Shown here piece after piece: positions 14,426-48,891 of a DNA stretch of 64,000 nt. Position numbers and translations under genes: made by a program. The notes beneath the pieces were generated by a model. It searched no databases. It saw nothing but the letters and a program-made list of their open reading frames with translations, and was not told where the DNA came from. Within the stretch, counting starts at the first letter, position 1. The number at the start of each line of letters is the position of its first letter. The stretch is from Lophium mytilinum (lineage: Eukaryota): the NCBI GenBank assembly GCA_010093605.1, contig MU004181.1, forward strand, positions 1,922,001 through 1,986,000, given 5' to 3'.

Positions 14426-14839
14426 ATGGCGTCTCCCAAGGAAGTCACGGACGCACACAAGACGATATTTGAAGAGGGCATCAAGATGCGATATGCCGTT
14501 GCCGGGAAGGAGTACGTCGACAAGGCGCTTGCGAATGGGTCATCCGAGTTCGCCCGGCCGATGCAAGAGCTGGTTACGGAAGCCTGCTGGGGTTCTGTTT
14601 GGAGCAGGCCAGGGCTGGAGCGGAAGCAGCGCAGCTTGCTCAACATTGCAATGCTGTGTGCCTTGAATCGTTCTGCCGAGCTTGCAGTGCACGTCAAAGG
14701 CGCTGTGAATAACGGCGCGTCGGACGTGGAGATCAGAGAAACATTGTTGCAGGCGGCTATTTATTGCGGAATGCCCGCTGGGATCGAGGGGTTCAAGGTG
14801 GCAGAGAAGACGATAAACGAGATGAGGATTGCGAAGTAG
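14426..14839 (+). CDS. carboxymuconolactone decarboxylase (CMD/AhpD-like) family protein
   Basis: G..MR..VAG.EYV, WGSVWSRPGLERKQRSL, ELAVHVKGA.NNG and AIYCGMPAG match PcaC-like CMD proteins. No CxxC motif. Confidence 0.88.
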   Translation: MASPKEVTDAHKTIFEEGIKMRYAVAGKEYVDKALANGSSEFARPMQELVTEACWGSVWSRPGLERKQRSLLNIAMLCALNRSAELAVHVKGAVNNGASDVEIRETLLQAAIYCGMPAGIEGFKVAEKTINEMRIAK

Positions 14840-17302: not shown

Positions 17303-18354
17303 CTACTGTGCACTCCCTCTAGCCGCGCCCGTCTTCCCTACAGCCCAATCTTCATCGCCGCCGATGTATCTAAACACCACTCGCGAGTCGAGATCGCGGC
17401 AGCGCTCATCATTCATCGCAGCCGTATACGTCTCCAAGCCCGCATCTCCCAGCATCAGCTTCGCGCCGACGCGCTTCGCCGAGTCCACGGCCAGCGAGAA
17501 GTCCTTTCGCATCAATTGCACTTTGAATCCGCCCTGGTAGCCCTTGCTCGCCGGCGCCTCTGGGCAGATGCCCGGCACCGGATTCCACTTGTCACAGATG
17601 GTACTCTGCGCCGTGCTGGTGTGGAAGATGTCAGCCAGCACGCGCGGGCTCATGCCAGACTTAATGCCCATGTTCATTGCTTCTGATGTCGCTATGGCAA
17701 TCAGGCCGGAGCAGTAGTTGTTGCACAGCTTCGCCGCGAGGCCGAGCGACTGGGCACCGCATGGGAAGACGGATGTGCCCATCATGCCTAACAGGTGCTG
17801 GATGCCCGCAAAACGGACGTCGTCGTGGGCGCAGCCGACCATGAATGTGAGAGTAGCTTTCTGGGCGCCCAGGTTCCCTCCTGAGACCGGGGCATCATAG
17901 AACGCAATGGATGCGTCTTTTTCCCTGATGCTTGACGCTACGGCTAGCGAGGTAGCCGTGTCGATGGTGGAGCAGTCAATGAGCAGCTTGCCATTTATGT
18001 TGGCGGAGAGAATGCCCGTTTCGGGCGTGAGGTATACCGAACGGACATGCGAGCCTTCTGGCAGCATGGTTAAGATGATATCCTATGGCGTGGTGTCGTG
18101 TTAGCCATTGGTGGGGTTCTTTAATTACTGTAAAATGGGGGCATCTGTACAGCTTTTTCTGCTACATCCTTTGCGCTCCCACATGCTTCAACTTTACCAT
18201 TGCTCTGTACAGACAACATGTGCATCGGCTGGGTAACTACGTCAAACACATACACCTTCACCGGCTGCGGGAGCTTCTTGGCCAAGTTCTCAACCATGGG
18301 ATATCCCATGACACCGAGCCCGACGAAACCAATGCTTTTGTTTGTAAAGTCCAT
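17303..18354 (-). CDS. beta-hydroxyacid dehydrogenase (3-hydroxyisobutyrate dehydrogenase-like), copy B
   Basis: IGFVGLGVMGYPM, DCSTID, DAPVSGG, AAKLCNN and GFKVQLMRKD. One intron at ~18085-18148. Confidence 0.9.
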
Positions 18355-18704
18355 GATATAGCACCAGACGGGCAGAAAATTGTTGCTAGGGACAAAAAAA
18401 AAATGCGAATACTGTCGTTGGAAAATTGTTAGGTGTGTTTTCTAAGGAGAGTTGCTGGTTTTATCGGGCCGGCGATTGAAGAGGATCAGGTGGGGTTTGA
18501 CCGATCGCGTACCTGGACACCAGTAGCTTTATGGTAGTGCTAGTAACTATATCACTGTTGCCACAGGGCAACAGGGGGCTTCGGCGCGGGGTACATAAAT
18601 GCTCAACGACGCGTCGGCCAATCATCAGCTTGCCCAGGGACAGTATTGCGGCCCACATCTGACAAGTATTGCAAGTTTAAATTTGGGGCTACCAGTGCCT
18701 CTCT

Positions 18705-19643
18705 CTAAGGCAGCGAGTTTGGGAAGAAGTATGCCTGATTCGCCTTATACCAATGCTCATCGTGAGCAGCAACTACCTGAACACCACCAGATTGCTGCAG
18801 CATCCGCAACCTCACAATCGACTCCCTCGCACCCTCCGGGTCCAAGTGGATGCACAAACTATGCCCTTCATCACCAGTCCAGAAGCCCAGTTCCTTCTCC
18901 CCGCTCAGCAGGCGCGGGTCGTGGAACGCATCGCCACAGAGACAAACCCACTTTGTCGGCCCGGTGCGACACAGTAGATTGATATGGCCTGGAAGGTGAC
19001 CGGGGCAGTCGACCACGTAGACGGAACCGTCCCCTAGCAGATCAATTGCTGCAGGGAATGGCCCCAGCGCCTGCCAGTTCCACCTCTGCTCCGATGCTGC
19101 ACTGGTGCTGTCCACCGGCGGGAGCTCGACGGTACGTTCTTTGGGCAAGACATGTGGGTCAAAGTGCTGGTGAGTGCCTTTGCCCGTGAGACCGTGGGCC
19201 GTCATGTTGCATGCGCCGTGGCCCACAATCACTTCAGCGGTGTGGAAGTCCTCCAGATCGCCGTGGTGGTCGTAGTGCATATGGCTGATTACAATGGCGT
19301 CAATTTTAGTCGCCGGAATGCCTCCATCCGCCAACTGTCTTGCCACGCCTGGCCCCAGCTGGTATGGCTGCCTGTTCCGCAAGTGGACTTGCTGCATAGG
19401 CGTGTATCGATTGATGTCGGAGCGCAGGCCCAAGTCAAACATCAGGTAGAATGGCTTGCTGCTCCCATCGGCCAGGCCCGGGTGAGTGATGAGAAATGCC
19501 ATTGAGGGCACTGTCCTCACGGCTTCAGAGTCAGCCGGCGATACGAAGGCCTTTTCTGGGAGGGTTATGAAGCCGCTCGTCAGCGGGGACACGGCGACGA
19601 ACTTCTGGCCACGTGGGCAGGCGGGCAGCGTGGAGCTGTTCAT
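18705..19643 (-). CDS. metallo-beta-lactamase-fold hydrolase (AHL-lactonase / lactamase-like)
   Basis: Intronless 312 aa ORF with FDLGLR, SHMHYDHHG (HxHxDH), DLLGDGSVYVVDCPGHLPGH, GDAFH and AAHD. Confidence 0.9.
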   Translation of the reverse strand: MNSSTLPACPRGQKFVAVSPLTSGFITLPEKAFVSPADSEAVRTVPSMAFLITHPGLADGSSKPFYLMFDLGLRSDINRYTPMQQVHLRNRQPYQLGPGVARQLADGGIPATKIDAIVISHMHYDHHGDLEDFHTAEVIVGHGACNMTAHGLTGKGTHQHFDPHVLPKERTVELPPVDSTSAASEQRWNWQALGPFPAAIDLLGDGSVYVVDCPGHLPGHINLLCRTGPTKWVCLCGDAFHDPRLLSGEKELGFWTGDEGHSLCIHLDPEGARESIVRLRMLQQSGGVQVVAAHDEHWYKANQAYFFPNSLP

Positions 19644-19987
19644 GGTGAAGACGGTCGTAGATGCTCAGCTTGGCGGAGCGTGGTGGGTACTGTGCGATGT
19701 TGGATACACAAGTAGTAGGCTTAGGTGGGCTATAGACAGCTTGGACAGCATGATTGACAGCAGGTAGTTGCAAAAGCAGAAATGGTTGGTGTTTACCGCA
19801 GTCAAAAGCCGGATGTGGGGAAGCAGTGAAGTCCCCGCATAAGAGCAGTCCCTGAGCCCCTGACTCAGACCCCGTTTGAGCCACCAGCAGCAGCAGGTAT
19901 ATTGGCGAGAGCTGCTGCTGCCGGCAACGTTAAATACCATCTTTTCAAACGCCGATATCGAAATCAAACGCCACAGCCGTGCCGAAA

Positions 19988-21919
19988 ATGGGCTCCGTAG
20001 GAGAAGCTTCGACAGCAGAAGCCGCGCTAGCTAAAGACGACCCCGATGGCCACCATGACCACGACATCGAAACCAGCACCACCTCGGCCTGCACGGAAAA
20101 ACGGGCGGCAAAGCGGAAGCCCGGGAATGTGAGGCCCCCCCGTGTTCAGACGGCTTGCGAGAGATGCCGTATCAAGCGAGTGCGCTGCGACGGCGAGCTG
20201 CCCAGCTGCGCTCGCTGTCTATCATTGGACCTCCCGTGCCAATACCCGCGGCGGCGGCGGCCCAGGGGCCGCTCTGACTACGTGCGGGTGCTGGCGTCGC
20301 AGACGTCCTCATCCTTACCCCAAGTGACGGAGCATTCCACCCAAGATCTGCTCGGAGATCGATTCCGGCCCGAAGCGCATCGCAACAAGGACAGCCAGCC
20401 GCTGGCGCTGCCACCAGATGCCTGGAGCCTCATCGACACCTACTTTGCATACACGCAGAGTTGGCTACCCATTCTCGACCGTGCCAACGTCTACCGCACA
20501 GCGCACTTCTGCTCGGCGAGCGGCGTCGAAGATGCGGCCAACTGCCCTGGTCCGGGGGCAACGGTTGCGTTATGGGCCGCCCTCGCGCTAGCATCGAGCC
20601 AAATCTCAATGCCTCCACGCGACCGAAACCACATCTACCGCGTGGCAAGAGGCCTGGTCTCGGACGATGTGGAAACTTGCGGGCTGGGACATGCCCAGGC
20701 GCTGCTCCTGCTTAGCCTCGTTAAGTTCAATGCGGGATTCTGCGCCACGGCCTCCCTTCTGGTTGGGCAGGCCATCCAGATCGCCTACAACATCGGCCTG
20801 CACCAAGCAAACCGCCCCTCCGATGGCGACGCAGCATCGCATGCTCCTCATCCCAAGGGGAAGCACGTCCTGCTAGGATGCTTCATTCTCGATACCTTGT
20901 ACTCGGCTAGGCTTGGCCGTCCGCCGCAGCTGCGAAAAGACTTCGTTGGCGAGCTGGAACGTCTAGACGAAGACGTACTGGAGGAGTGGGACGTGTGGGA
21001 TGTCCCTCCCCACTTGAACTACGCTGTGAGCCGGCAGCCGCTGAGATTGAACAGTACTTTTAAGGAGCTGGGAAAAATCCACGTGCTTCTCAACGACCTC
21101 CTATGCAGCGGTATGGAGAAGGAACACGCGCCCGGGCAGTACTCCCTCTTCTTCGACCGGCTGGTGAAGCTCAGCAGGGAGCTTCCTAGTCCTTGTCAGC
21201 TCAACATGTCGCTGGAGGAATCAAAACTCATCGCCAACATCCATCAACTGCAGGTATACAATCTGCACTCCGCCTTGGCCGCCGCAGCCATGCTTCTCCA
21301 GCTCTATCCCTACCGCGCCGAGAGCGCCGACACCTTGGCCACCAACCTCGGAACAGGCCCTACCCACGCCCACCACATCCTCGGCCTGCTCCGCCGATAC
21401 TCAACTACATTCGGGCTTAGCTACGTCCCGCCTCATCTCGATTTCGCCGTCGCGCTGGCAACACGTCTTTCAGAACGGCCAACTGCCGGCACCGACTGTG
21501 ACTGGAGCGCCGAGAGGACAGTGAGGATCCGTCTAGAAGGCTATGCCGCGCGGATCCGCTACCAACGACTGCAGCTCGACGCCGTAGACACAGCCTCTCT
21601 CGCCTCGCCCGCGTCCCTCACGACAGCGACGACAGAAGCGGCATCGAGCCCGGCGACCAGCCTCGACGGGGCTTCTCACCACACGCCAGCACTGTGCTTC
21701 TCCACGCCGAGCTCCTCGATTTGCACTGGACCTATAGTAGAGGCGGATGTTGTGGCTATGGATCTCGTAGGGAAGGGGGTGCCGTGCCCCGACGAGTTGA
21801 AGAACTGTGCCCAGTCGCTGGACGTCGGGAGCGTGTCTGCAGCGTATGGGCCACGGGAGTCCGAGACACCATTCCAATTTATCGACTGGCCGAACGAGCT
21901 ATTAGCGTTCTCGTTATAG
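19988..21919 (+). CDS. Zn(II)2Cys6 transcription factor with fungal TF middle domain (QutA-like)
   Basis: ACERCRIKRVRCDGELPSCARCLSLDLPC cluster, LPPDAWSLIDTYFAYTQSWLPIL and CFILDTLYSARLGRPP. Single long ORF. Confidence 0.9.
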   Translation: MGSVGEASTAEAALAKDDPDGHHDHDIETSTTSACTEKRAAKRKPGNVRPPRVQTACERCRIKRVRCDGELPSCARCLSLDLPCQYPRRRRPRGRSDYVRVLASQTSSSLPQVTEHSTQDLLGDRFRPEAHRNKDSQPLALPPDAWSLIDTYFAYTQSWLPILDRANVYRTAHFCSASGVEDAANCPGPGATVALWAALALASSQISMPPRDRNHIYRVARGLVSDDVETCGLGHAQALLLLSLVKFNAGFCATASLLVGQAIQIAYNIGLHQANRPSDGDAASHAPHPKGKHVLLGCFILDTLYSARLGRPPQLRKDFVGELERLDEDVLEEWDVWDVPPHLNYAVSRQPLRLNSTFKELGKIHVLLNDLLCSGMEKEHAPGQYSLFFDRLVKLSRELPSPCQLNMSLEESKLIANIHQLQVYNLHSALAAAAMLLQLYPYRAESADTLATNLGTGPTHAHHILGLLRRYSTTFGLSYVPPHLDFAVALATRLSERPTAGTDCDWSAERTVRIRLEGYAARIRYQRLQLDAVDTASLASPASLTTATTEAASSPATSLDGASHHTPALCFSTPSSSICTGPIVEADVVAMDLVGKGVPCPDELKNCAQSLDVGSVSAAYGPRESETPFQFIDWPNELLAFSL

Positions 21920-22437: not shown

Positions 22438-22774
22438 ATGCAAACCACCCTCCCACACGAGACGAAGTGGCCTGGAGAGCAGCTCGAGCAAAGCATGGCG
22501 ACCCCTCGCCCCTGGAGAGAGGGCGGCACCCGTGTCAGGCTATACTGGGGGGTCGCATTCGAGCCGCAAGCCCACGCTGGCCTTAACTTCGGCAAAGTCA
22601 CGGCGGGGCTATTGATACGTACGGGCAGTGCCCTTAATACAGCCACCGCTACGGTTTGGGCAGGTGGTACTAAAGAATTGCTACGCATCTACTTCAGCGT
22701 CGCCTTTTTGCATTTCATATATTGTATATTTTCGAGCCCTTGAATTCCCACGAGCCTACTCTCGCAGCAGCGCA

Positions 22775-23662
22775 ATGCAGACAGCCGACAGCACAGGAAA
22801 CACGTTCGTCGTCCATCCCAGCGGCCAGAGGACGCACTATGTCGAGGATGATGTTGACGATCCTGGAGCTGGCGCACAGAAGCCCAAGGAGACGGTCCTC
22901 ATACAGCATGGCTTCTGTCGTACCACCGCCCATTGGCAGCATTGGGTTCCTGCTCTCGCGCGCCGGTTTCGCGTCGTCCGGCGCGATCTGCGTGGCCACG
23001 GGCGGTCTAGCTATCCGCTAGAATCTGATGGCTACGACTTCTCAATCGACACGATCCTGCTCGAGATTGTGCAGACGCTCGACGCGCTGGGCGTCGACAG
23101 GGTGCACTTCATCGGCGAGTCGACGAGTGGCATGCTCGGTGAGATCTTCGCCGCCAGGCATCCGGAGCGGCTGCTCTCCCTGACGGTCATCTCGTCGCCG
23201 ACACACCTCCCTCCGCAGGCACTGGAGCTCTTCGCGTTTGGCCACGCCAGCTGGCCGGAAGCATGTCGCGCGATGGGCTCACGGGGATGGGCCGAGGCGC
23301 TGTCCAAAGTCCCGGGAACTGTCTCGAGCCCTGATCCGGTGTATATCAAGTGGTGGATCGAGCAGGTGGCCGTGTCGAGTGGGGAGGGTCTCGCGGCCTA
23401 CGCGCAGTTCCTAAGCACGCTTGACTCGCGGTCGTACTTGAAGGACATTCGCGTGCCAATGCTGATCCAGGCGCCGGCCAACAGCGCCGCAACGAAGCTG
23501 CCCGACCAGCGGTGGTTAGCCGAGCAGGTCCCAAGTGCCAGGCTAGAGGTAGTTAATGGCCGCGGGCACGAGATCTACGTGGAGATGGCGGAGGAATGTC
23601 AGAGGCTGTTTGTCGAATTCGTGGACGGGCTAGGCGAGCTAGATACTAGCAAGGCCCAATGA
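22775..23662 (+). CDS. alpha/beta hydrolase (enol-lactonase / C-C or amide hydrolase-like)
   Basis: LIQHGF oxyanion motif, DLRGHGRS, nucleophile elbow IGESTSG and C-terminal GHEIY. Intronless. Confidence 0.88.
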   Translation: MQTADSTGNTFVVHPSGQRTHYVEDDVDDPGAGAQKPKETVLIQHGFCRTTAHWQHWVPALARRFRVVRRDLRGHGRSSYPLESDGYDFSIDTILLEIVQTLDALGVDRVHFIGESTSGMLGEIFAARHPERLLSLTVISSPTHLPPQALELFAFGHASWPEACRAMGSRGWAEALSKVPGTVSSPDPVYIKWWIEQVAVSSGEGLAAYAQFLSTLDSRSYLKDIRVPMLIQAPANSAATKLPDQRWLAEQVPSARLEVVNGRGHEIYVEMAEECQRLFVEFVDGLGELDTSKAQ

Positions 23663-23938: not shown

Positions 23939-26894
23939 TCAGGAGACGCGGGCCCAGCTACGATAGTCTTTCTCGAATTGGCTTGCAAGCTCTTGCAGCA
24001 CTGAACCCATCCTCGGTGTTATGCCCCATACCCACACGTCATCTAGGGCCAGTTAGAACACAAGCGCAAATGCCGGCCACCGGCCGCAACCACCATCGTG
24101 ACTTACCAAGAAGGCTGGCCCACGTCGTCGCGACAGCCGCGGCCAGCGACGAGTCCCCGGAATAGTCACTCTCAACCTCCGCGAGGAGCTCTTTAACCTG
24201 GTCGAGAATCTTGCGCTCCCCTTCATCGGGATCCTGTACAGCCGACGATTTCTCCACCGTGTGGATCCATTTCGTAAGGAACAGTGCTATGGTGGAGGGT
24301 TACTCGACTGTTGCAATCAGAAAACACATGCAAAGGGCCTGCACTCACCACTGTCCCATCCCGCTACAGCGTGCTCGACGCTCCAATTGAACGCGGCCGT
24401 CTTCCTCACCAGCATCAAGCCAATTCTCACCGGCGCAAGTAACCCTTCGAATGCCTTGGCAACGGCCTTGGTATGGTGATGGCTACGCTGCTGCTTGGCA
24501 AAAACGTACACGGTCAAGGCTTGCTTAACCTCCTGTGGATTGTCCGCGAGCAACGCCATACGGTTGAAAGCTGCGGAATCCGTAAAGATTCGGTTGTACG
24601 CAATTCGCAACAGCGCTCTACAGTTGAACATAAGTGGGCCCTCTGTTTCGCTCCATGTGGAACCAGGATCATCGGCATGGCCTTGCGTGAGGGCCCCCTG
24701 GCACCTTGCGAGCGCTGTCGATGCCGCTGACAGCAAGACAGACTGGAGCGACCCGTCCGGGCCGACTTCGGACGCGTCCTGGCTGAATGACTGCGTGAAC
24801 TGCAGCTGGGTCCACATGTGCACGTTTACGGCGTGCATGAGGACAACGGTCGTGAATGCAGAAATACAGAGCGGACTGGAGTTGACGCTGTCTTCCTTTC
24901 TGGCTAAAATGAGCGTCGCCATGGCCTCACGAATGGTTTTGATCGGGCTCGAAACTTGAAAGTCTCTCAGACTAGCCCACTGCTCAGTCGAAGAGGCATT
25001 CCAGAGCTTCTCTTCACATGGCATCTCGATGATGAGGTCGTGGGTTGTCGAAAACCCAGGCGTCACGCCGTACGTTATAGCAATCATGTCGCTCAGGATG
25101 AAGAAGGCGCAAAGAACCCTAGTTTCGTTAGAAAAGAATCGAAAGGCCAAGGGTAAGCCAAATGTGGCTGCTGAGAAGAGCCAACAAGCAGGGCACTAAG
25201 TTCACAACCGGTGTGTCGCGGTAGCTTACCTTTTACTCGATTCCTTACAGGTCCATTCCTCCCAGGTCAAATCCTCATCCCGTCTCGTATCCGCGAGCAG
25301 CGCCGTCCTCCTCGCCGAGTAATCCACCACAAAAAAACCTAGCTTAGAGATCATCGCCTTCGCAATTGCCGGCTTGTCGCCAAACATGCCGAATACAGCT
25401 AACAGGGTGCGGGTCTGCGCAATCCACAGCGGACTTGGAGCTAGCGACGCGCCGAGCATATTTGGAATTGAATTTGCTTCCAGCATCTGCGTGGCAAGCT
25501 GATACAGACTCTTAGACCACTTCCGGTCGAGTCGGTAGAGCGCGCCTATTGCGCAAACAGCGAATGTTAAAGGGCTCGGCGTAGTGTGCAGGTCGAAGGA
25601 GGCGAAGTGGATGATGGGGAGGTGGCGGTGAAAGCAGTTTATGTAGCTTGTCACGAATCTTTGTATGTCCTTGGCACTCGGCAGGGGCGTTTGACTGCAT
25701 TCGTTTGCCTTTAGTCGGCTCTGCACGTCTCTATGCATCTGCTGGTACGCTAAGTCCTCGATTCTTGGATTTGGCAAATGAACGCCGCTATCCCATGATA
25801 TAAGAGGTAGGTTGGCGAATGGATTGCCGGTGTGTTCGTTCGCGAATCCGAGCGGGTGTCCCTGTATATTTGACTTCTTCCTCTCGGCGGCCTTTCCAGC
25901 TACAGACGAGTGCTCGGACCCCGACGCCCTGAGTTGTGGTGGGCGGGGAGTCTGCTGCGGTTGCCCTTGGTGCATCGTCTGCTCATTGTCTGGGCTGAAT
26001 CCGACGTTAGTCATGAAGGCTAAGTCTTGGAAGACGTTGAAGTCTGATCCAGTGCCCAGGTCCATGTTAGCCCACTCGTCAAACGGCTGCGGCGGGCTGA
26101 CGTCCTGCTGCTCGATCATGTCTCCGGGTTGCTGGTGCTGCTGCTGCAACGGAGATAGCAAGGCCTCTTGGTCGGGCATATTGACAGGAATCACGGGCTG
26201 GAAGTGGGATGAGTTTTCTGCCGTGAAACTGGTGGGCGGCGCATGTTGAAACGAGTCAAGATCCATATCTGGAGCCCCATCGATGCAGAAGTCCAATTCG
26301 GAGCCGAGATGGAAGTAGTCATCCACCCGTCGGGTCTGCGTAGGCGAGAACGTGCCTCCTGATGCTTGCGAAGAGCGCGAAGCGAGGTCGTTTGCTGGCT
26401 CTATGGCTGCACCTGATGGACTTGCCTGAGGGGCATCCTCGGGCGGTTGGTTCGCGAGCGCAGCCGGACGGCCGACATTGATGGTGTCGCTGGTGTCGAG
26501 CTGCCGTCGTTGCCCAGCGGGGGGAGCGGCGGCGGTGTCAACCGGATGGATGGACCTTTCGTGCCTCTGGACTAGGTCTCTGCCGACGGCGTGGTCAGTC
26601 TTTGCGCTTTAATAGCGGAGGGCCGAGGGGAGACTTGCTTGCGGGCGTAGCGACGTGTGCAGAAGCGGCAGGCAAACGGCTTCTCTTGAGTGTCTGCAAC
26701 ACCGGTGAGGCCAGGCCGGCGGCGGCGGAGAGGCGAGCGCGAGGTGTAAACTTACGAACGCGTTCGTGGCGGGCACAGTGCTCGCTCCGCTTGAACTCGC
26801 GGTGGCAGCTCCGGCACTTGTGGATTCTTCTTGGCCGACCCGTCTTAGTAGTGGAGGTGTCTGGCGGTGGAACCTGCAGGTCGGTGAGAGACAT
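23939..26894 (-). CDS. C2H2 zinc-finger transcription factor (Adr1/AmdX-type) with fungal-specific TF domain, copy B
   Basis: Fingers HKCRSCHREFKRSEHCARH and CRFCTRRYARK|DLVQRH. Also YINCFHRHLPIIH, AVCAIGALYRLDR, WSVEHAVAGW and VWVWGITPRMG, ending at TGA 23939-23941. Collinear with copy A. Confidence 0.85.
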
Positions 26895-27496
26895 TGGGCG
26901 TGTCCACGATGGGGGAGGGGAGTGGTGGAGGCGGGGATGGGTGCGGAGGGGATCGTGTCGGGGGTGGATGCGAAGCTGAGCAGTATGGTTGCCAAGCCGG
27001 CATGTTCGAGCTGCTCGGTCTGCCGAGCGTGAAGGCCAGGGGAGCAGCCGATCAAGCGGGGAAGGGGCCTGGGCGGTCTGTGCTGAGGCTAATTTTGACC
27101 ATCCTTCTCGACATTTTGCACACAGAACTCGCATGCACCGAAAGCTTCTACAGAGCTATATTCTAGCTACACGATTGCACTTTGGCCTTATCGTAGTCAT
27201 CAGGAATACTGCCATTGCGTTCTTGACAGGCTCAAAGGCAGTCTTACTATCTCCCAATAGTCTGAACCACGCTCAAGTTCCAGGACAATATCATCGGTGC
27301 TTTCAGACACAAATATCGTGCTAGAACGGACTCTTCGTGCATGACTCAAGCATTCCTAGACGGAAAATCAACATTGACACTGCGAGTGCTCGCCTTGCAT
27401 TATCTAGCTAATCTTCTGCGTATTTAGTAAGCCTTATACACCATGTTCATGGGCACGCGTCCCTCACTGCGCTATCACGTGGCTGTCAGGTACTTA

Positions 27497-27528: not shown

Positions 27529-27781
27529 ATTACCGCCCTGGGTTTAGCGTCAATTCCCCATACTATCGTCGGCCAATGGCAGGTCAACGTCAGCGAGGGT
27601 CTGGACCTACAATGCATCTCGATTGAAGCCACAATTGTGCCAACTTGTAAATAAAAAGGATGTCAGGGTAGCTAGAAGATGTTCAAATCAATCGTGCAAA
27701 CGGCCAGCCTCTCTTAGAACAGCACGCTCTTCTTCAGTCTACTCTTGTACTTTACGTTCTAGCTCAGATTCGTTTACCACC

Positions 27782-29452
27782 ATGGGCTTTGGAATCCTCG
27801 AGGACAAATCAGACCTCGCTCATGTTCCGGGCACTGTTCTCCTCGCCGAGAAGATATCACAACCTGGTGACGTTCTCGCACAACTCAAGCATGGCAGTGG
27901 AGCAGATGCTCAGATCGTACTCGTCCCACAGCCTAGTGAGGACCCCAACGACCCCCTGAATTGGCCATACTGGAAGAAACTGTCCATTGTTGCCATTCTT
28001 GTGTACGGCTCTTGCCTATGCGCCGCAACAGTCGGCCCTTTGCTGAACGCAAGCATCGCTGTGCTCGCCATGGATTTCAAGACATCTTTCAAGGACATCA
28101 CTCTCATGTCTGGCTATCAACTCCTGGCTGCTGGCTGCTCCGGCCCGATTGTGTCTGCTCTGGCGAGGAAATATGGAAAACGTCCAGTATTCTTAGCTTC
28201 TTCCCTCTTCGCAGTAATAGGGTCAATTATGGGCTCGGCATCCCATTCTTACAATACTCTACTTGCGGCTCGCATCGTCCAGGGGTTCTCTATTTCCGCA
28301 TACGAGTCCATCATATTCTCAGTTATTCCGGACCTCTTCTTCCTCCACCAACGTGGACTGTTCACGGCCATCGTGAGCTTTACGCTAAGCGCTGTCTCCA
28401 ATTTGAGCAGCGTTGTCGCAGGGGCTGTCACGAACAATCTCGGATGGCATTACCTGTTCCACCTCCTCATAGTTACCGTGGGCCTACAGCTCATCCTGCT
28501 ATATCTGTTCGTGCCAGAGACGACTTATCATCGCGACCGTCTTTACGAAGTTGACCTAGCCTCGACCGACAACCTCCAAGAACTGGCAGAAGCTGAGGCT
28601 CGGCACGACCCAAGAACACAGAAAGCTATCCAGGACCTCAAGATCGAGAAGACCGTTACAAACACCAGCTCAGTACCTCCGCCCAAGAAGACTTTCATCC
28701 AAGAACTTGCAATATTCACGGGCACCCACAGCGACGAAAGCCTCATCCAGCTCGTCTTCGCTCCGGTATTGTGCTGTCTCAATCTGGGAGTTCTGTGGGT
28801 GGTCGTCGTCAGTGGCACCGTGACGTCCTTTTACGTCGGCATGGCCTATGTCGCCGCCCAGATTTTCTCTTTCCCTCCATACAACCTTACCGCAGCCGGC
28901 GTGGGCTACTTGTCCCTTGGACCATTTCTTGGCGGTGCACTCGCCTCCATCGTGTTAGGTCTAACCAACGACCCTCTGATTATCTGGTTCACAAAACGCA
29001 ACAAAGGCATCTTCGAGCCTGAAATACGTCTTTTACCAATCATTTTCAGCTCCGTCGGTGGTGTTGGCCTTATTCTATACGGTGTGCTCGCTCAAAGAGG
29101 AGACAACCTTTACCTAGTGGACTTCATGTGGGGCCTTATGCTCTTCGGAGCCGTCTTCATCTTCACGTCGGCCTCGGCGTACGCTATCGATGCGTACCGG
29201 GACATGAGCAGCGAGCTGTTCATTGCCAGCATGATGTTGAAAAACTTCCTATTTTACGCTTACAGTTACTTCATGAACGACTGGGCCGCTTCTGCTGGAC
29301 CAGCCCAAGTGTTTGAAGTTTTTGGCGGCGTGTACTTTGCACTGGCGCTGACTACCATTCCTCTTTATATCTTTGGAAAGCGATATCGAAGCTTCTGGCA
29401 TCGTCATAACCTTTTGGAGATGCTTCATGTTCGCACTCACTCTGCGTTTTAG
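27782..29452 (+). CDS. MFS transporter (Hol1-like / DHA1-related)
   Basis: MGFGILED..., PQPSEDPNDPLNWP, KYGKRPV, PETTY and EPEIRL. About 12 hydrophobic segments, intronless. Confidence 0.92.
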   Translation: MGFGILEDKSDLAHVPGTVLLAEKISQPGDVLAQLKHGSGADAQIVLVPQPSEDPNDPLNWPYWKKLSIVAILVYGSCLCAATVGPLLNASIAVLAMDFKTSFKDITLMSGYQLLAAGCSGPIVSALARKYGKRPVFLASSLFAVIGSIMGSASHSYNTLLAARIVQGFSISAYESIIFSVIPDLFFLHQRGLFTAIVSFTLSAVSNLSSVVAGAVTNNLGWHYLFHLLIVTVGLQLILLYLFVPETTYHRDRLYEVDLASTDNLQELAEAEARHDPRTQKAIQDLKIEKTVTNTSSVPPPKKTFIQELAIFTGTHSDESLIQLVFAPVLCCLNLGVLWVVVVSGTVTSFYVGMAYVAAQIFSFPPYNLTAAGVGYLSLGPFLGGALASIVLGLTNDPLIIWFTKRNKGIFEPEIRLLPIIFSSVGGVGLILYGVLAQRGDNLYLVDFMWGLMLFGAVFIFTSASAYAIDAYRDMSSELFIASMMLKNFLFYAYSYFMNDWAASAGPAQVFEVFGGVYFALALTTIPLYIFGKRYRSFWHRHNLLEMLHVRTHSAF

Positions 29453-30021: not shown

Positions 30022-31552
30022 TCAATGCTTCGAGTTCCCATTCAGAGTAGTGCTCTTCAAATTAGCCATAATCTTCTCAACTTCCTCCTTGTGCCCCGAA
30101 AAATTATCCACCAGACTGTCCCACATTTTCGGCTCATGCTCATGCTTCTTCTTGCTATTCCATGCGTACTCCGTGATGGTGAATGGCCTGCTACTCTCAA
30201 ACATGAAAGCGATGGAACCCTTGGAGATTTGCATGACTGGAGGGTCGGCCTTCGAAGCCTCGGCGAACTCTTCATACGCAACACCATGAGGTACCATGCC
30301 GCACTCGAACGAAACGCTGCCTGGCTGGAACTCATCAGATCGGCCGCCGTAATCTCCATATATGAGGCCCATGAGCTCAGACGCCGCGTTGCGATGATAG
30401 TAAGGCGGCCGATACGTGTGAGACGCAACGTCCCAGCGCGGTGAGAAGATCAAAATGTCTGCCAGCGGAGCCGTCGGATCGCGCGACCTCGCGGTCAGGA
30501 CACAGAAGATGGACGGGTCGATGTGGTCTACTGAGATGGATCCCACATTGACGAACTTGGTGAGATCGTACTTGAATGGCACGTAGTTGCCGTGCCACGC
30601 AACGACGTCGAATGGGCAGTGCCGCTGGGTGCTCTTAAAGAACTTGCCGCCAAGCTTGTAGATAATCTCCCATGGATCGTCTTGCGTGACTTCGTAGGCC
30701 GCCTTGGGGTGGAGGAAGTCGCGAGCGTTTGCGAGCCCGTTGGCTCCAAGAGGACCTAGCTCGGGAAGTTCGAAGTTTGAACCCCAGATCTCGAGAATGT
30801 ATCCTCGGGTAGGGCCATCGACCTTGACTTTGAAGCGTTGGCCTCGTTGGATGATGCAGATCTCGCCGGGTTGAACGTAAAGATGTCCATACTCGGTTTG
30901 GATATCTAGCGCACCCTGTTGTGGCACAATGCAGAAGTCTCCGTCTGAGTTTACAAAGGCTCGCTTCTCCATGCTTTGATTGCACAGATAGACGTGTGTA
31001 GCTAGACCTTCCCTCAACATGGGATCGCCGGCGCCTGCGATCGTTTTCAGCCCGGAAACGAAATCGACCTTGTCGCTGCTCTCCGGAAGATCGAAAGGCA
31101 GCCAGGCCAGCTGAGTCGGAGAGACGCGAACCCGAGGATTTATAGGGAGGAAGTTTGATTCCGTATCATTATTATCAGGCATGTCGGTCTACGGCCATAG
31201 TTAGATCTAAATATATGAATGGGTACGAGAAAGTACTCACAAAGCCTTGATGAGCAACCGCAGGCCGTGCGCGATACAACCATGCCTTCTTGTTCAAATG
31301 CCTCGGAGCAATAAAAGAAGAAGCAGTCAGTTGCTCGGCGTATAATCCAAAGCGAACGCATCTGGGGCTATTTTGACCCTGTGGAATGGTACCGGGGATA
31401 GCTTCAGACTCAAAGGAATTGCCTAAGCCGGCCATGTACTCGTATGGATCATTCTTCCGAGTAGCGAACGACGGGACGGCGCCATTCTTCTGCGTCTCGG
31501 CCCAGTGGAAAATATCCTGATACTCCTTGGAGTTTGACAGTTCGGCAGGCAT
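30022..31552 (-). CDS. hmgA: homogentisate 1,2-dioxygenase family protein (divergent paralog)
   Basis: SEAIPGTIPQGQNSP, GLYAEQL, WLYRARP, PELGPLGANGLANARDF, DVVAWHGNY, DHIDPSIF, and the iron-ligand motifs RPPYYHRN.ASE and PHG. One intron at ~31180-31240. Confidence 0.93.
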
Positions 31553-32713
31553 GGTGGATTTGATGTAATGCTTACACGAAACGAGAAGAAATGGTATTGG
31601 GTGACTGGTTTGTATCGATTGGCTCAGTATTTAGATGTGTTGTATATGAATCTATGATGAATGTGGGGATGGTGGGGTAGTTAAGGGGGCTACTAAAGTG
31701 GTCCGATGGGGCGATGGAGGGGCACCGAAATGGGCTGATGGAACATCCCGTGCCGTTTTTGACTCTGGCAACCGAAATAATGAGACGAACGAAAAGGTCC
31801 TTTAGGCAGATGTCTACAATGTAAACTTTTAAAGATCAAGATCTACATTTTTACTAAAGCTAGTACAGGCCTCTATATCTTCGGTATCTCGCGAGTACAT
31901 ACATTGAACTCCCCGGTATGTCTCGCTAGAATAGCGGACAATTGAGTAACCCGACGGTTTCCCCATTGGGGTATCTCGTATTGAACGCTGGAAGTAGGAC
32001 CTGTGGCTTCGTTTAAACCATGATCGTAATGCGAACTTTTGCTAGAACATCCCGGAAAGGACGATCTTGATGTTTCTATCTACGTGTCACCCCTCCTCTG
32101 CCGTCAGGAGACTTGAGACTGTGAAGTATCGATACGGTACGGATATGATCGAGGAGCTAGACTGCTTAGAGCATAGATTGAGGCATGGAAGTATCTCAGA
32201 ACTCCCTGGCAGCCAACAAGCTTTAGAGAATACCAGTGGGCCAAAATTCGGAAAATTGCTGCATTGGTTGACATCAACGTAGTCAAAAGTAGCGATGATG
32301 ATCGGTATTCGATATGTCTATTATTGCTACTCATATAGAGTGCAAGATTTAATATCTATGATCTTAAGCCATATAGAATGTCACATATCGGCTACATCAT
32401 TGCACTTTGCTGGCTCGGCTTGCATAGAACAACATACTTTGGTGAGTCGGCAAGGGGGCAGATCAACCAGGAGACTGCGCTCACTCATTGTGAGTATTTT
32501 GCTTGCGAATGTCGATACATGCGCCAGCACCAGCTCAAAGCAGGATAGTGAGATTGAAAGTATGCATGAGGCGAAGTAGAAAGTAGTGATCGAGCCTATT
32601 GGACGCAAAGCTTAGTAGAAGCAGGGCTAGGCTACCACAGAGAAGTTTCTATGTAGATGTTCTTTGAGTGCGACCAACGCGTTCAATTACTATGTGAACC
32701 ATTTGCGTAGAAT

Positions 32714-33848
32714 TTACAGATCTGCTCTAGCATTGTCTCCAGCCCAAGCCCTTCGAATAAGTTCTTGGATCGACGCCTTCTCCAGCGGTCTCGGGTTAGG
32801 GTATGGCTTTGATAGTGCAATCTCAGCCGCCTTGGCGACATCTTCTTCCTTTAGACCAAAATCTTTCAGTGCCCTTTTTACTCCTAGTCGTTCTAGTAAC
32901 AGATTTAATCCCTTAATTGCATCTCCGTCGCTATCCGGCAGCACTTCTGCAAGCTTCCGCATGGCTTCCGGAATTGCGGGAGCATTGTACGCTAGGGCAT
33001 GGGGCAGAACGATCGTATGTGTCTCGGCGTGAGGGAGATTGAAAGAACCTCCGAGAGTGTGGCAGAGTTTGTGGTGAAGTGCCATGTCGACACTACCAAG
33101 GCAAAATCCGCAAAGCCACGCGCCGTATAGAGCATCTTTCCGGGCATCGATGTCACTTGGCAGTGAAACTAGGGCCGGAAGTGAGCGGGCAAGAGACCGT
33201 ATACCTTCAAGCGCGAGGACGCTGACGATTGGATTCTTATTGGCTGCATAGAGAGCCTCCACTGTCAAGAAGAGTTGCTTATCAGTATGGTCATGGTGAC
33301 TTTCGTGTCTGGAGAGGCTGACCTGAGTGCGCAATTGCATTCACTCCACTTGTCGCACTCATCATGGCGGGCAATGTGAGTGTGAGGTCGATGTCATAGA
33401 TGACTGTTGTAGGAAGAATCGCTAAATCTCTGCGCGTTGTCTTGAGCCCGTCCACCGTCTCACCCAGTATCGGCGTCATCTCGCTCCCAGCATAGGTGGT
33501 CGGAATGCAGATATGCGGCTTGCCGGTTCGTACGCTGAGTGCCTTGCCGAGCCCAATAGTGCTGCCACCGCCGAGCGAAACGAAGCTATCGACACCGAAC
33601 GCGTTCACCACGCCTAGTGCTTTCTCGGTGATGTGGATGGGCGTGTGCATAGTCGCTTCGGAGAAGACATGGTCGGCGGCCGCTCCAAGAGACTTGGCCA
33701 GCTCTAGAATGGAACCTTGTTGCTCTGGTGTGGAGAGAAAGAGTGGCGTATGCACTTTCAGCCGTGCGAGCTCTGCGGCCAGGGTCGACAGTGTGCCTGA
33801 GCCAAATATGACTCGGCTGGGATTTCCGTTGTATTCAAAGCTAGCCAT
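32714..33848 (-). CDS. maleylacetate reductase (iron-containing alcohol dehydrogenase family)
   Basis: RVIFGSG, ATMHTP, GGGSTIGLGKA, IPTTYAGSEMTPILGET, SGVNAIAH and MALHHKLCHTLGGSFNLPHAETHTIVLPHA. One intron. Confidence 0.93.
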
Positions 33849-34279
33849 AATTCAACAAAATGTTTGGTGAGCGTTGCAAATCCAGATATCTCGGGCATAT
33901 CTTCAGATAATGGATATGCAGGGCAGCGTGGGGTCAGGCCCGCAGCAGGTCTGTTTGATAGTTAAAAACATTCCTTAAAACAAGACACTTACAGTACAGC
34001 AGACGAGCGGAAAGAACAGGAGTCAGCCTAGACTGGATTAGAATGCCTGTTCGTACCCCACCTGGCCCTTGATAGCTCCCCTTGCACGTTTGGTTTTGTC
34101 TCCTCCGCTTTTTTGATCTCTTCGCCCCGTGGGGCGTGCTGCTCTGAACACGAAAATCTACCCCACTTCCGCGGGGAACACCGTTTGGGGAACACAGTCA
34201 AGAGTTATGGACAATGCATCTACAGACCGCGGAGGGCTCGCAGAACCTCTAGACAACGTCTCTATAGTCTCTCTTCGCA

Positions 34280-36057
34280 ATGTCTGTCACACTGAATCAT
34301 GCCTCTCTCGGTGCCCGCCTGGAAGGACTCGAGGTTGGGAAGCTCTGGCAGTTCAGAGGCATCCAGTATGGAACAATACCCGCCAGATTTGCGCGAGCAT
34401 GCCCGAAGAAGCTTGAGGGTAGAGTGGACTGTACTCGTTACGGGTATTGCTTCTCAGACTGGTGGTCAACACAAATGTTTTCGCTGACTTGAGTAGGCCT
34501 CGTTGTCCGCAACTGAACTTCGATGTGCGACACCTTCTCCGTATCCCTCAAGATATCGAGCTGCCCGCTGAGCCAGAAGACGAATTTCAATGCCTAAACC
34601 TAGACGTGACGATGCCGCCTCTCAAGCCAGGGCCCAGGCCTCAGTTGCTGCCTGTTTTATTGTGGATTCATGGTATGCTTTGCTGTGTTTCGAGTAAGAG
34701 CAGTGCTTACCTAATTCTGTTCTAGGTGGTTCCCAGATTGCGACATTCGGGAGTTCGGCTTCAGGATTATGTGGTCAGTTTCTTTGCTTCGTATTCCGTC
34801 CCCATCTCTACTAGACAACTTTAACGCAAACCCTGTACCACAGATATGACCAGAATTGTGTCTGACTCGGTAGATCTTGGGTACCCGTTCATAGCGGTGG
34901 GTATTCAATATCGGCTGAACATGTTCGCTTTTGGGAACGGCAAAGGAGAGAAGAATCTAGCTCTCAAAGACCAGAGGCTAGCGATCGATTGGGTTGTGGA
35001 ACATATTGGAGGATTTGGCGGCGATCCAGTATGAGTTCCCAGCACTCTAAAGTTATACAAAGTCAGTGTTTGTGTCTAACCTAAGCTAGGCAAACATAAC
35101 TCTTGCTGGCGAGAGCGCGGGCGCGGTCTTCTGCCATGCACATGTCGTAGCTCAAGCTCCGATACACCAAGCGATACTTTCTTCGGGAACACTATATCTA
35201 TCGCCACCATTACCAGTCCAGAATGGCACTGCTCTCATAAACAATGTGGCTAGGGAGCTCGAGAAACTGGGCCACAAAGATATGGAAACTGCTCCACCGC
35301 ATATTCTTCTCAAAGCGCAGGCCAATCTCGGCATTAAATCTGTATGGATTCAAATGGAACCTGCCTTTGAGGACTGGGAAAATAAAACGGGAAATACTAC
35401 GCAGTTACTCATTGGAGATGTCGAGTTTGAGGTACGCTTCTACTACAGCTTTTCAATGCGGAAGGAGACTAACATAGTCAGAGTATCATATGGAGGAATG
35501 GAATCGAGATGCTAGAGCCCGATTACATTGCAAAATGCTTCGACAACCTCGGGGACGACAGTGCGGCTGTGAAGCGTTTGTACGGCATCTTGCCCGACCG
35601 AAGTACATCTTGCAAAATCGGAGCTCTTGACTTGATTACCGACCAGAGGTTCGCGCTACCGGTGGAGAAGGTTCAACGGCTATGGTTGAACTCTGGAAAG
35701 CCTGCCTACCGGTACTTACTGGATCAGCCAAATCCCTGGCAATCGTCGAATCGTTCTCATCATGCTGTGGATTTGGTATTTCTTTTCGGCGTATTCGACA
35801 CTTCAAATCCAGCAGCAGAAGCTGTTGGAAAGGCGATGCGGACGAAATGGATAGAGTTCATAAATGGGAGGGCCCCGTGGGATTCTTCTCGTGCTTTCGC
35901 GTTTGGGCCGTATGGAGAGGCGCAAAGTATCGATCAATCTGTGGTAGACATGCGGAGACGACGAGCTCATCTAGACCTCGTGAGCAAAGTAGGTTGGTCA
36001 AAGTTTAACGCGGCAGTTGTGCCACTGATTATGGGCCGTGTCAGCCTACTCAATTAA
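34280..36057 (+). CDS. type-B carboxylesterase, copy B, no signal peptide
   Basis: QFRGIQYG, EDEFQCLNL, LWIHG, QYRLN, LKDQRLAIDWV..HIGGFGGDP, LAGESAGA and the His motif SHHAVDL. Multiple introns. Confidence 0.9.
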
Positions 36058-36605
36058 TACTATCGACTCAAACAGCTCGCAGGTGATGATTGAATCCACC
36101 TGATGTCCCTCTGAGGAAATACAAGCGATGTGGCCATGATTTGTAGTTCGATATTAACTTGATCAAGGTAGAAAAGGAACGAAACAAAGTGATAGCAGGA
36201 GTGACGGCTGATCAAGGAACAGCCACTGCTAATTATTCATTGACCAGAACCAGCAACTCCATGGGTTGAACGTGGAGAATTGCTCACTGCGCTCTTACGG
36301 CGTACATATCGACCGGAACGTTCACTTACCCATGACGGAAAGCCATTGCGAGAGTGGCAGGAGAGGGTTCTCGCACAACTCTGCTCAGTCCTGATTGAGC
36401 GTAAGGTGTTTGACTGCAACGGGGCTCTTTTCCCGACTCCACACCATCTAGCAAACCCCGCAAAACCCCCAGAATGCGGGGTATGACAGCCTTGCGTAGT
36501 ATATCTAACCGTTACAGTTGGAGCAGGGGGTCTTCGCTTTGAAAGGTTGAGCTAAATATATACCGGGCTGGCACTGTAGCCATATGAGCTGAGAATCGAC
36601 CTCCA

Positions 36606-38498
36606 ATGAGTTTTTCCAAACTATTGCCTCATTTGACGATGGCCCAACTTACCCCAATCGCTTTTGCAGCGATCATATCACTTTTCCCCATTTACGTGGT
36701 GGTGCGTGCTATTGCTGATCCATTGAGGAAAGTGCCTGGCCCATTTTGGGCACGTTTTTCGCGATTATGGTATCTACGCGAAGTTTACAACGGCGCATTT
36801 GAGAAGCGCTCTCTTCAACTTCATGAGAAATACGGTGAGGTTACGATGTCATCTTACCAGGATCTGCACGGCAGCTGAACATTCATGTAGGGCCTATTGT
36901 GCGCATCGCTCCGAACGAGTATAGCATAGACGATCCGACAGCGGTCAAGACCATATACGGGCTGGGAACCAAATTCTATAAAGTATGGCAAGTCTACTAA
37001 CTATTCTTCGCCTCACCATCACTTTTCCAACAGGACAAAAATTTCAGCTAATCATCGCCCTGAAGTCGCCGTGGTATATTGCTTCCGGAAATCCAGATCC
37101 AGAACATTTGGACCTCTTCACGGAACGCGACCCCACAAAGCATGCGCTCATGCGACGGAAGGTTGCTGGCCTATACTCTGCATCTAGCTTAGTACGCATG
37201 GAGCCTTTTGTTGATGAGTGTGTAGGGCTGTTTGTACAGCGCCTAAATGAGGTTGCTGCAACAGGTCGTTCAATCAATGTGCAGCATTGGATGCAGTGTT
37301 ATGCATTCGATGTTATTGGATATATCACAGTATGACATTCTTCCGGTGACAACTGTAGATTTTGTGTTCTGATGCTAATCGCATGCAGCTTTCGAAGAGA
37401 TTCGGGTTCCTGGACCGCTGTGAAGACGCACCGGGAATGTTTACAAGTCTCCATTCCTATCTGAAATATGCTTCACGCGTCGGGGTATTTTCAGAGGTGC
37501 ATTCAATAGCATCCAAGTTGTTAGCAAAGCTCGGCAGCGGTGGTATGTCCCACATGACGAACTTCGTTGGCGCCCAGCTCCAAGACAGACAGCAGCGACT
37601 CGCAGAAAAAGAGGGCGGAGGCACAGATGATGACTTTATGTCGAAAGTACTCGCGCAGCACAAAGCGGATCCTGAGAAGTTCACCTTCAATGATGTTTTC
37701 ACTACGTGTATTACCAACATTGGTGCTGGTTCTGACACGACATCGATTTCGCTGTCTGCGGTTATGTACTATCTAATTCGTAATCCGGACGTGCTCGACA
37801 AGGTACCGTACCACACTCGCCTGCGTCTGCAAAAGCAAATCATAGGTCGAGCTAACGGGGACACCTGTAGCTTCGCAAGGAAGTCGATGAAAAGTTACCG
37901 CCGGGAAGCACTGTCGAGAACTTCTCGTTTCAAGACGCCCAAAAGTTGCCATATCTACAAGCGTGCATTAAAGAAGCTCTCAGAGTCCATCCGGCAACTG
38001 GCTTACCTCTCGGACGAGTGGTACCAAGCGGTGGTGCAGAGATCATGGGAGTGCTTTTCCCGGCCGGAGTAAGTAACTGAGACTACTTGTGTTGAAGCTC
38101 TGTATTAATGTTCCATCAGACGGTGGTTGGTATCAACACATGGGTTGCCCATGCTAACAAAGAGGTTTTTGGGCTCGATGCGGCTTCATATCGGCCAGAG
38201 AGGTGGTTGATCAACGATAAACAGCAGTTATCTCGAATGGAGGGTTATTATATACCGGTATTCTCCACATCAATTCAATCGCTATTGTGCAACATACTCA
38301 TATAAATGTTTTTAGTTCGGCCACGGATCGCGTACCTGTATCGGGAAGAACATAAGCCTCTTGGAAATATCGAAGCTTGTGCCCATATTGGTGCATCGAT
38401 TCAACTTCAACCTAGTTAGACCAGAGGAAGCCCTTAAATGCCAAAATGTCTGGTTCGTTAAGCAAACAAACATTGAATGTCGGGTGTCGCTCAGATAA
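36606..38498 (+). CDS. cytochrome P450 (copy C; pisatin-demethylase-like group)
   Basis: VPGPFWARFSRLWY, LHEKYG|PIVRIAPNE, I-helix IGAGSDTTS, KEALRVHP, YRPERW and heme motif FGHGSRTCIG. Stop TAA 38496-38498. The start may instead be ATG 36639. Confidence 0.9.
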
Positions 38499-48027: not shown

Positions 48028-48891
48028 CTTCCGTCAATTCAGGATGGTCGTTGAGTTGGCTAAGTGGTGAAGCCGTGGAATCGAGCCAATGCACATCTAT
48101 CTGTCTTCACAACGGTTGGAAGCTACGGCTCAAGGGTATCGCTAACAGGGATACGAAGACACAGCACGGCTTGATAAGAGAATACGCAATTGAGGAAGAG
48201 GAGAAAGGGTGAGTAGGCCAGACAGCATGCTGCCGAAGGGCAAACGAGGTATTGCTCGGACAAGTCTTCCCAGCGGAGTCATGTCGGAGCTCGAGTCGGC
48301 GTATGCCATGGTCCCTGCAAGCAACTGGGCCAACTGCTGAGGTACGGATGGCAAAAACGGCTCTTAGTAGACGGCGGGTGGGGAGGAGGTTGTATACAGC
48401 CAATTGGGGGTGCAGGCTGGCCGCGGGGGGTGCCGTGTGTGCCGAGTTCGCGATGCAAGATGGGTCTTGGTCTGGCACCGAGCAATCTGAGGGACAAGCT
48501 TTCCGAGCACTCACCGCACACCTCGACTTGTCCGATTGCGGGGTGACGTGCCCCGCCATTGCTGGTAGATATAGGTAGACATCTTCCGACCGTAGAAACA
48601 TCAATTTGTTCATTTTGATCACTTTAATCTACCAATTGACCGTGCTCAAGCTCGAGAGACGTTATTCGAATATGTCGAGCCCACCAGCCCTAGGCTCGCT
48701 ACTCATTCCATCCCGATTCCGGCCACCTTTGTCCAATCCACGGCGACGCCTCCGCCCATAAACTAATCCAGGCACTGTGGCGTCATCGCCCTTCTCAAAT
48801 AACTCATTGACATTCCTCAATTCTCAAACCCATCCTCAACCACATTTGCGTCTACAACTAAACTACCCTCACATCGACAAACTCCACAACC

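Follow-up and report, generated by a model that had tools for sequence, protein, structure and literature searches.

A candidate methoxyhydroquinone pathway gene cluster with a second maleylacetate reductase copy in the fungus Lophium mytilinum

A candidate lower pathway for methoxyhydroquinone

We analyzed a stretch of 64,000 nucleotides (hereafter the window) from Lophium mytilinum, a fungus of the order Mytilinidiales, class Dothideomycetes (contig MU004181.1, positions 1,922,001 to 1,986,000 of the assembly GCA_010093605.1). In this window, a gene of the homogentisate dioxygenase (HGD) family and a maleylacetate reductase gene are adjacent on the minus strand and are followed by a divergently oriented carboxylesterase gene. 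These three adjacent genes very likely form the fungal lower pathway of methoxyhydroquinone (MHQ) degradation, which serves the catabolism of guaiacyl lignin units. The original prediction, made from the sequence of the window, correctly described the dioxygenase and reductase genes as adjacent and co-oriented, but regarded them as two orphans deprived of their usual partners; they are better read as two of the three genes (dioxygenase, reductase, esterase) of a known lower pathway. The pair looked orphaned because MhdA-type enzymes and true HGDs are not told apart by automatic annotation, nor by the hmgA equivalog model. The pairing is mostly explained by the published fungal route and is not new.

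In Aspergillus niger, the MhdA protein (NRRL3_10111), annotated as HGD, is a methoxyhydroquinone 1,2-dioxygenase, and the purified enzyme converts methoxyhydroquinone to 4-hydroxy-6-methoxy-6-oxohexa-2,4-dienoate (Lubbers et al. 2021, PMC8336404). The carboxylesterase gene omeA (NRRL3_10110) is a co-induced neighbor of mhdA, and its deletion results in accumulation of the reduced ester 4-oxo-monomethyl adipate, and thus reduction takes place before de-esterification (PMC8336404). A maleylacetate reductase homologue, NRRL3_04956 (NRRL3_4956), was proposed for the reduction step (PMC8336404). The FAMeDB database, which includes methoxyhydroquinone among eight fungal central ring-opening intermediates, still carries the label 'putative' for the reductase NRRL3_04956, with the remark 'same as maleylacetate reductase', and assigns one maleylacetate reductase to both the hydroxyquinol and MHQ pathways (PMC13094099). 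The pathway suggested as a novelty has therefore already been published for A. niger and catalogued in FAMeDB.

The proposed order of steps in L. mytilinum is taken from A. niger genetics. The MhdA-type enzyme would cleave 2-methoxyhydroquinone beside the methoxy carbon by means of its Fe(II) site (His/Glu/His), yielding 4-hydroxy-6-methoxy-6-oxohexa-2,4-dienoate, that is, maleylacetate methyl ester in the enol form. After tautomerisation, the C=C bond would be reduced by the maleylacetate reductase with NAD(P)H to form 4-oxo-monomethyl adipate, from which the OmeA-type type-B carboxylesterase would remove the methyl group, so that 3-oxoadipate enters central metabolism. The earlier idea of a non-canonical lower pathway thus survives in its outline, namely reduction followed by the action of an alpha/beta-fold hydrolase with no glutathione-dependent isomerisation, but not in its substrate, nor in the chemistry of the hydrolase, which is not a C-C hydrolase cleaving the ring-fission product but a type-B carboxylesterase that would remove a methyl ester.

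By the MHQ route, guaiacyl-lignin rings are opened by fungi without prior removal of the methyl group. Such a cluster fits the habitat of L. mytilinum, a fungus of conifer wood, in which guaiacyl lignin is abundant, and it would represent a compact three-gene cassette that can be tested or transferred to production strains.

The dioxygenase and its substrate

The dioxygenase gene (30022..31552, minus strand) consists of exon 1 (31552..31241) and exon 2 (31188..30022, including the stop codon), separated by a GT..AG intron of 52 nt (31240..31189). Its spliced product of 492 amino acids coincides in every residue with the protein P0001, 'homogentisate 1,2-dioxygenase-like protein [Lophium mytilinum]', and both exons carry matches to the Pfam domains HgmA_N and HgmA_C. 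In a spliced contig of 1622 nt from run X1, position 31188 is joined to 31241; the gene is transcribed and spliced according to the gene model, with all transcription evidence coming from contigs of this one run, X1, which is not on record as RNA. Short GT..AG introns splitting genes, together with many frames encoding fungal-specific transcription factor and Zn2Cys6 domains, are fungal traits of the whole window. The calculated mass of the dioxygenase is 55.2 kDa; that of a related A. fijiensis protein is 54.5 kDa, and 55.5 kDa is expected for the His-tagged MhdA (PMC8336404).

Membership in the HGD family is also evident from solved structures, as the human enzyme (1ey2) matches exon 2 with an E-value of 4.9e-115 and the best solved match (E 6.4e-120) is PDB 9pz4, whose chain of 496 aa bears the deposited name 'homogentisate 1,2-dioxygenase'. 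In the alignment, the 9pz4 chain has neither His at the position of human His365 nor Tyr at the lid position, and this protein, too, may be a fungal enzyme of non-canonical type; no mention of 9PZ4 or Pc21g22500 was found in the literature searched.

Comparison with the 388-aa exon-2 query revealed a clade of at least 120 listed matches with 73-100% identity, mostly of 470-513 aa. It spans Pezizomycotina and includes, among the matches listed, Aspergillus sections Nigri, Flavi, and Fumigati, as well as Penicillium rubens. The Aspergillus and Penicillium members have 481-491 aa, and identity of the window dioxygenase with Aspergillus proteins of 487-491 aa amounts to 77-80%. When proteins are clustered at 50% identity, the whole clade is reduced to one representative (P0111, 77%), and no full-length representative outside it exceeds 48% identity to the window protein; the named ones among these belong to Cerrena, Beauveria/Cordyceps, Aspergillus multicolor, Exophiala, Smittium, Gonapodya, and a diatom.

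The phylogenetic tree of the dioxygenases contains 41 rows (16 rows from the 120 clade matches and 25 from the 34 near-full-length representatives outside the clade); it was built by a quick method and has many long outgroup branches. In this tree the clade (16 rows) has a support of 99 and is nested in a fungal group of 20 rows with a support of 100, which also contains the Cerrena, Beauveria, and A. multicolor lines and stands apart from the remaining HGDs. Clade membership of the window protein is thereby demonstrated. The enzyme had been called a 'divergent' HGD, which agrees with its low identity to proteins outside the clade but not with the hmgA equivalog model of NCBIfam, TIGR01015, whose cut-off (510.75 bits) is exceeded by the full-length P0001 (548.8 bits). 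TIGR01015 at the same time rejects a chytrid HGD (478.4 bits) and a Cerrena HGD-like protein (415.8 bits), and therefore its cut-off does not track substrate specificity in fungi.

The substrate of the window dioxygenase is probably methoxyhydroquinone formed from vanillate, and not homogentisate as was originally suggested, because the Aspergillus members of its clade adjoin an OmeA-type esterase, as published for A. niger. In particular, CNMCM5793_000285 of A. hiratsukae, which is 77% identical to the window dioxygenase over 483 aa, adjoins CNMCM5793_000284, one of 18 proteins matching the window esterase, and thus the published mhdA-omeA arrangement of A. niger is reproduced. From clade, size, and synteny, we infer that the window dioxygenase is orthologous to A. 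niger MhdA. The L. mytilinum cluster resembles the A. niger pathway in its HGD-family dioxygenase of about 490 aa, the nearby type-B carboxylesterase, a middle step assigned to the maleylacetate reductase family, and the predicted end product 3-oxoadipate.

The catalytic residues of the window dioxygenase are intact. Its residues H369, E375, and H405 correspond to the Fe(II) ligands of human HGD, which we take to be His335, Glu341, and His371 (numbering checked by counting in the alignment). Residues were compared in 89 of the 120 clade matches (470-515 aa) and 34 other representatives (425-515 aa), and the three ligands are invariant in all 89 clade members. The His at human position 292 and the lid Tyr (Tyr384; human Tyr350) are also kept in the window protein. 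Two other positions have changed: that of human His365 is occupied by Glu in 89/89 clade members (His in 18/34 other representatives), and that of human Arg347 by Tyr in 88/89. At strict thresholds, the only position that separates the clade from other HGDs is residue 218, which is inconsistent (Pro in A. flavus, Gln in human).

A true homogentisate dioxygenase would imply a different role for the whole cluster, in which maleylacetoacetate is reduced to succinylacetoacetate by the reductase and split by the hydrolase, replacing maiA and fahA in tyrosine catabolism. In agreement with such a role, the score of the protein is above the hmgA equivalog cut-off, conservation extends to the Fe ligands, the lid Tyr, and the residue at human His292, and the window has no fahA or maiA. 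Indeed, a Pfam scan of all 335 stop-to-stop frames of at least 70 aa in the window, which shorter exons can escape, revealed no fumarylacetoacetase (FAA_hydrolase), glutathione S-transferase (GST), intradiol-dioxygenase, or cupin gentisate-dioxygenase domain, in accordance with the earlier statement that the usual partners are missing here. We nevertheless consider this explanation extremely unlikely. On the tree, the other HGD representatives lie apart from the clade, which also has the Glu and Tyr substitutions described above, and the neighboring hydrolase is a type-B carboxylesterase rather than a C-C hydrolase of the fumarylacetoacetase fold. In addition, deletion of mhdA in A. niger has an effect on guaiacyl compounds, and Aspergilli with a clade member carry a separate HmgA as well: MhdA shares just 50.8% identity with the true HmgA (AN1897), and an HmgA homologue is likewise present in fungi that have MhdA (PMC8336404). 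Compared with the canonical homogentisate pathway (hmgA, maiA, fahA; AN1897, human 1ey2, and Pseudomonas putida 3zds), the window dioxygenase thus shares the fold and the Fe(II) His/Glu/His site but belongs to another clade with different residues at the two positions, and its genomic partners are a reductase and an esterase in place of maiA and fahA.

Several observations weigh against methoxyhydroquinone as the sole or proper substrate. Besides passing the TIGR01015 cut-off, the window protein retains the lid Tyr, which is said to bind the homogentisate carboxylate (PMC11634970, section 7). Two HGD-family enzymes of Phanerochaete chrysosporium, PcMHQD1 and PcMHQD2, prefer methoxyhydroquinone (PMC11634970, section 7), but only PcMHQD2, which has Phe at the lid position where the window dioxygenase has Tyr, does not convert homogentisate, whereas PcMHQD1 is active on both compounds (PMC11634970). 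With the lid Tyr kept and the equivalog cut-off passed, some homogentisate activity of the window dioxygenase is possible. Both Phanerochaete enzymes represent a basidiomycete lineage, whose nearest representative in our set, Cerrena P0288, is 46% identical and lies outside the window clade. Finally, orthology with MhdA is based on clade, size, and synteny rather than on direct comparison with the A. niger MhdA, OmeA, and NRRL3_04956 sequences, and identity between the window esterase and its Aspergillus relatives reaches only 45-50% over a 185-aa query.

The same chemistry might also act on another hydroquinone, such as dimethoxyhydroquinone, an alkyl- or hydroxy-hydroquinone, or the product of a neighboring cytochrome P450. 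The HGD-like enzymes of P. chrysosporium accept methoxyhydroquinone and dimethoxyhydroquinone, and one of them also homogentisate (PMC11634970); moreover, a P450 gene lies just downstream of the esterase gene, and a flavin monooxygenase gene similar to PnpA and HspB is located 14 kb away. A different hydroquinone appears very unlikely, however, as conservation within the clade (77-80% identity to the Aspergillus members) argues for a conserved substrate. The presence of an esterase points in the same direction: it is required only for an ester ring-fission product, and therefore fits a methoxy substituent at the cleavage site. Methoxyhydroquinone is thus retained below as the probable substrate of the cluster.

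The reductase, the esterase, and their linkage

The maleylacetate reductase gene (32714..33848, minus strand) encodes a protein of 357 aa with the Pfam domains Fe-ADH and ADH_Fe_C. Exon 1 (33848..33323) and exon 2 (33261..32714, including the stop codon) are separated by an intron of 61 nt (33322..33262), and the product of this model shares 90% identity with both P0149 and P0150. The latter protein, the Mytilinidion resinicola orthologue (90-91% identical), matches the structures 3jzd, 3hl0, and 3w5s with E-values of 7.4e-110 to 7.8e-105; for the solved maleylacetate reductases among them, the values are 8.5e-107 (3hl0) and 7.8e-105 (3w5s). Full-length similarity to solved enzymes and a conserved core demonstrate that the window gene belongs to the maleylacetate reductase family. 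The reductase family and the product 3-oxoadipate are shared with the route that combines an intradiol dioxygenase with maleylacetate reductase; unlike that route, the window contains no intradiol dioxygenase, and ring opening by the HGD-type enzyme would give an ester product.

L. mytilinum has a second reductase, P0172, a protein of 356 aa encoded on a different contig and 70% identical to the window copy. Phylogenetic trees of the reductases were built from 109 rows (fasttree) and 37 rows (quick method). M. resinicola P0150, one further protein, and the window copy form a group with a support of 100, on a stem of 0.54 changes per site, whereas P0172 evolves slowly and groups with its M. resinicola counterpart (P0172/P0179 pair, stem 0.15). 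Neither tree settled the placement of the window reductase group among other fungal reductases. From these data, the window reductase is a fast-evolving second copy, found only in Mytilinidiales, and this is the modestly new element of the cluster.

Of the 160 columns with a conservation of 95% or more across 106 other fungal reductases, 159 are retained in the window reductase clade; the sole deviating one is residue 60, where Gly is replaced by His. The reductase is therefore intact, and its conserved core gives no sign of an altered substrate: a search of the conserved columns for clade-specific changes that could explain ester specificity found none beyond residue 60.

The third gene of the cluster (34280..36057, plus strand) is OmeA-like and encodes a type-B carboxylesterase of about 496 aa in several exons with matches to the COesterase domain. 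In a tblastn search, residues 1-496 of its M. resinicola orthologue P0269 are covered over 34280-36054, and the serine motif GESAG is read in the frame 35090-35515. The intron 35430-35479 is confirmed by a spliced X1 contig, and hence this gene is also transcribed and spliced. It lies 2.7 kb from the dioxygenase gene, and its best matches outside Mytilinidiales include the A. hiratsukae protein adjoining the HGD-like gene. The window esterase is thus a type-B carboxylesterase with the catalytic serine motif, situated near an MhdA-type gene, as is characteristic of OmeA. The spacer of 431 bp that the gene coordinates leave between the divergent reductase and esterase genes (33849..34279) likely serves as their shared promoter region, and the trio would be co-regulated.

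Recurrence of the neighborhood in other genomes, which the original prediction had recommended to check, is partial. In M. resinicola, the dioxygenase P0123, the reductase P0150 (about 91% identical), and the esterase P0269 (86%) are all encoded on one contig (1,675,696 bp). Pseudogymnoascus sp. 05NY08 carries an HGD-like gene (VF21_09419) and, four locus tags away on the same contig of 58,154 bp, a reductase gene (VF21_09423). On the reductase tree, this protein groups with other Pseudogymnoascus reductases, and therefore the two HGD-like/reductase linkages arose separately. Linkage in the named species was judged from contig sizes and locus tags and not from gene maps. In addition, we considered 49 loci of a metagenome collection at which clade members are encoded; 43 of these loci are distinct, and 19 have flanking sequence of 8 kb or more. 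A strong esterase homologue (more than 400 bits) is present in the flanks of the HGD-like gene at 7/49 loci, equal to 5/43 distinct ones, and at 4/19 loci with long flanks; weaker carboxylesterase matches are seen at L004/L005, L011, L016, and L025. The neighborhood of HGD-like and esterase genes demonstrably recurs.

The reductase gene, on the other hand, is not a general neighbor of the dioxygenase gene, and here the evidence again runs counter to a functional trio. No homologue of the window reductase occurs in the flanks of the HGD-like gene at any of the 49 metagenome loci. In nine species present in both match lists (Saccharata, Mollisia, Dactylonectria macrodidyma, Leptodontidium, Pleurostoma, Phlyctema, A. 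arachidicola, Pseudogymnoascus VKM F-4519, and Chaenotheca), the HGD-like gene and the best-ranked reductase gene are on contigs of unequal size or have distant locus tags. Run X1 has no contig over the reductase gene. The region upstream of the dioxygenase gene and the 431-bp spacer share two 9-mers, with 2.5 expected, and no common word of 10 or more nucleotides.

These data could be explained by a chance or loose neighborhood, in which the reductase serves the hydroxyquinol branch and the corresponding intradiol dioxygenase is encoded elsewhere in the genome. Such an explanation is consistent with the lack of reductase adjacency at the metagenome loci, with the assignment of a single reductase to both pathways (PMC13094099), and with the unlinked reductase genes of A. 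niger and A. oryzae. In the latter species, the homologues of mhdA, the reductase gene, and omeA are induced by vanillin, and their locus tags are on different scaffolds (PMC12335040). We consider it quite unlikely for four reasons: L. mytilinum already has the slowly evolving second reductase P0172; the window copy lies exactly between the other two pathway genes and is divergent with the esterase gene across 431 bp; the trio is located on one contig in M. resinicola; and a separate HGD-like/reductase proximity is observed in Pseudogymnoascus sp. 05NY08.

Assignment of the trio to the MHQ pathway is therefore preferred, and this reductase copy would serve it. In A. niger and A. oryzae, the unlinked reductase is taken as a general maleylacetate reductase, whereas in L. 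mytilinum a second, fast-evolving copy is found between the dioxygenase and esterase genes. It is conceivable, at somewhat less than even likelihood, that this copy arose by duplication and was recruited and specialized in Mytilinidiales for the methyl ester 6-methoxy-4,6-dioxohex-2-enoate, rather than acting as a general maleylacetate reductase. FAMeDB still treats NRRL3_04956 as putative, and no experiment is known to have linked the reduction step of the MHQ route to a gene; the position of the window reductase gene between the two other genes provides independent genomic support for this putative step. If the proposed specialization is true, the window reductase would be the first dedicated enzyme for the reduction step of the fungal MHQ pathway, and its location the first genomic-context evidence for it. 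No physically linked trio is described in the accessible portions of the literature naming both methoxyhydroquinone and maleylacetate reductase, and the accessible part of a paper on hmgA and gentisate clusters (Greene 2014, PMC3914699) does not mention this arrangement.

Other genes of the window

Several genes near the trio are possible members of the cluster. A major facilitator superfamily (MFS) transporter gene (27548..29452, plus strand; MFS_1 and Sugar_tr domains) is convergent with the dioxygenase gene and, by its position, possibly belongs to the cluster. The same may apply to the cytochrome P450 gene downstream of the esterase gene (36588..38498, plus strand), which has several exons with p450 matches on four frames. 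By position, the fungal-specific transcription factor gene at 24317..27155 (minus strand; Fungal_trans matches on two frames) is a candidate regulator.

The flavin monooxygenase gene at about 15336-16738 (minus strand) is situated 14 kb from the cluster. Among solved structures, its N-terminal exon is closest to PnpA and HspB, which are para-diol-forming enzymes, and the product of the gene could supply the cluster with a hydroquinone. Beside it lies a frame of the carboxymuconolactone-decarboxylase family (14387-14836, plus strand).

A second carboxylesterase gene (about 9639-11762, plus strand) is flanked by P450 genes at 7779-9407 and 12233-13784, both on the minus strand. The esterase-P450 layout of this region (7779-13784) resembles that of the esterase-P450 pair at 34280-38498, although the two esterases are distant, with 27-41% identity in tblastn pieces. 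Two 3-hydroxyisobutyrate-dehydrogenase-like genes, a gene for a protein of the metallo-beta-lactamase fold, and an alpha/beta hydrolase gene (Abhydrolase_1) occupy 204-1200, 17306-18441, 18708-19664, and 22616-23659. Two regulators with Zn2Cys6/Fungal_trans domains (19934-21916 and 1879-4308) are encoded near these catabolic-type genes, and a wider catabolic neighborhood seems to extend over the left half of the window.

In the right half, the GC content falls to 0.32 at 56001-58000, compared with the window mean of about 0.5; this stretch is almost without long frames, may be a degraded repeat region, and is followed by a HET-domain frame at 59431-59775. A thiopurine-S-methyltransferase-like gene is found over two frames at 48862-49839, near genes for an OTU protease, a WSC-domain protein, and a haem peroxidase (49903-54400).

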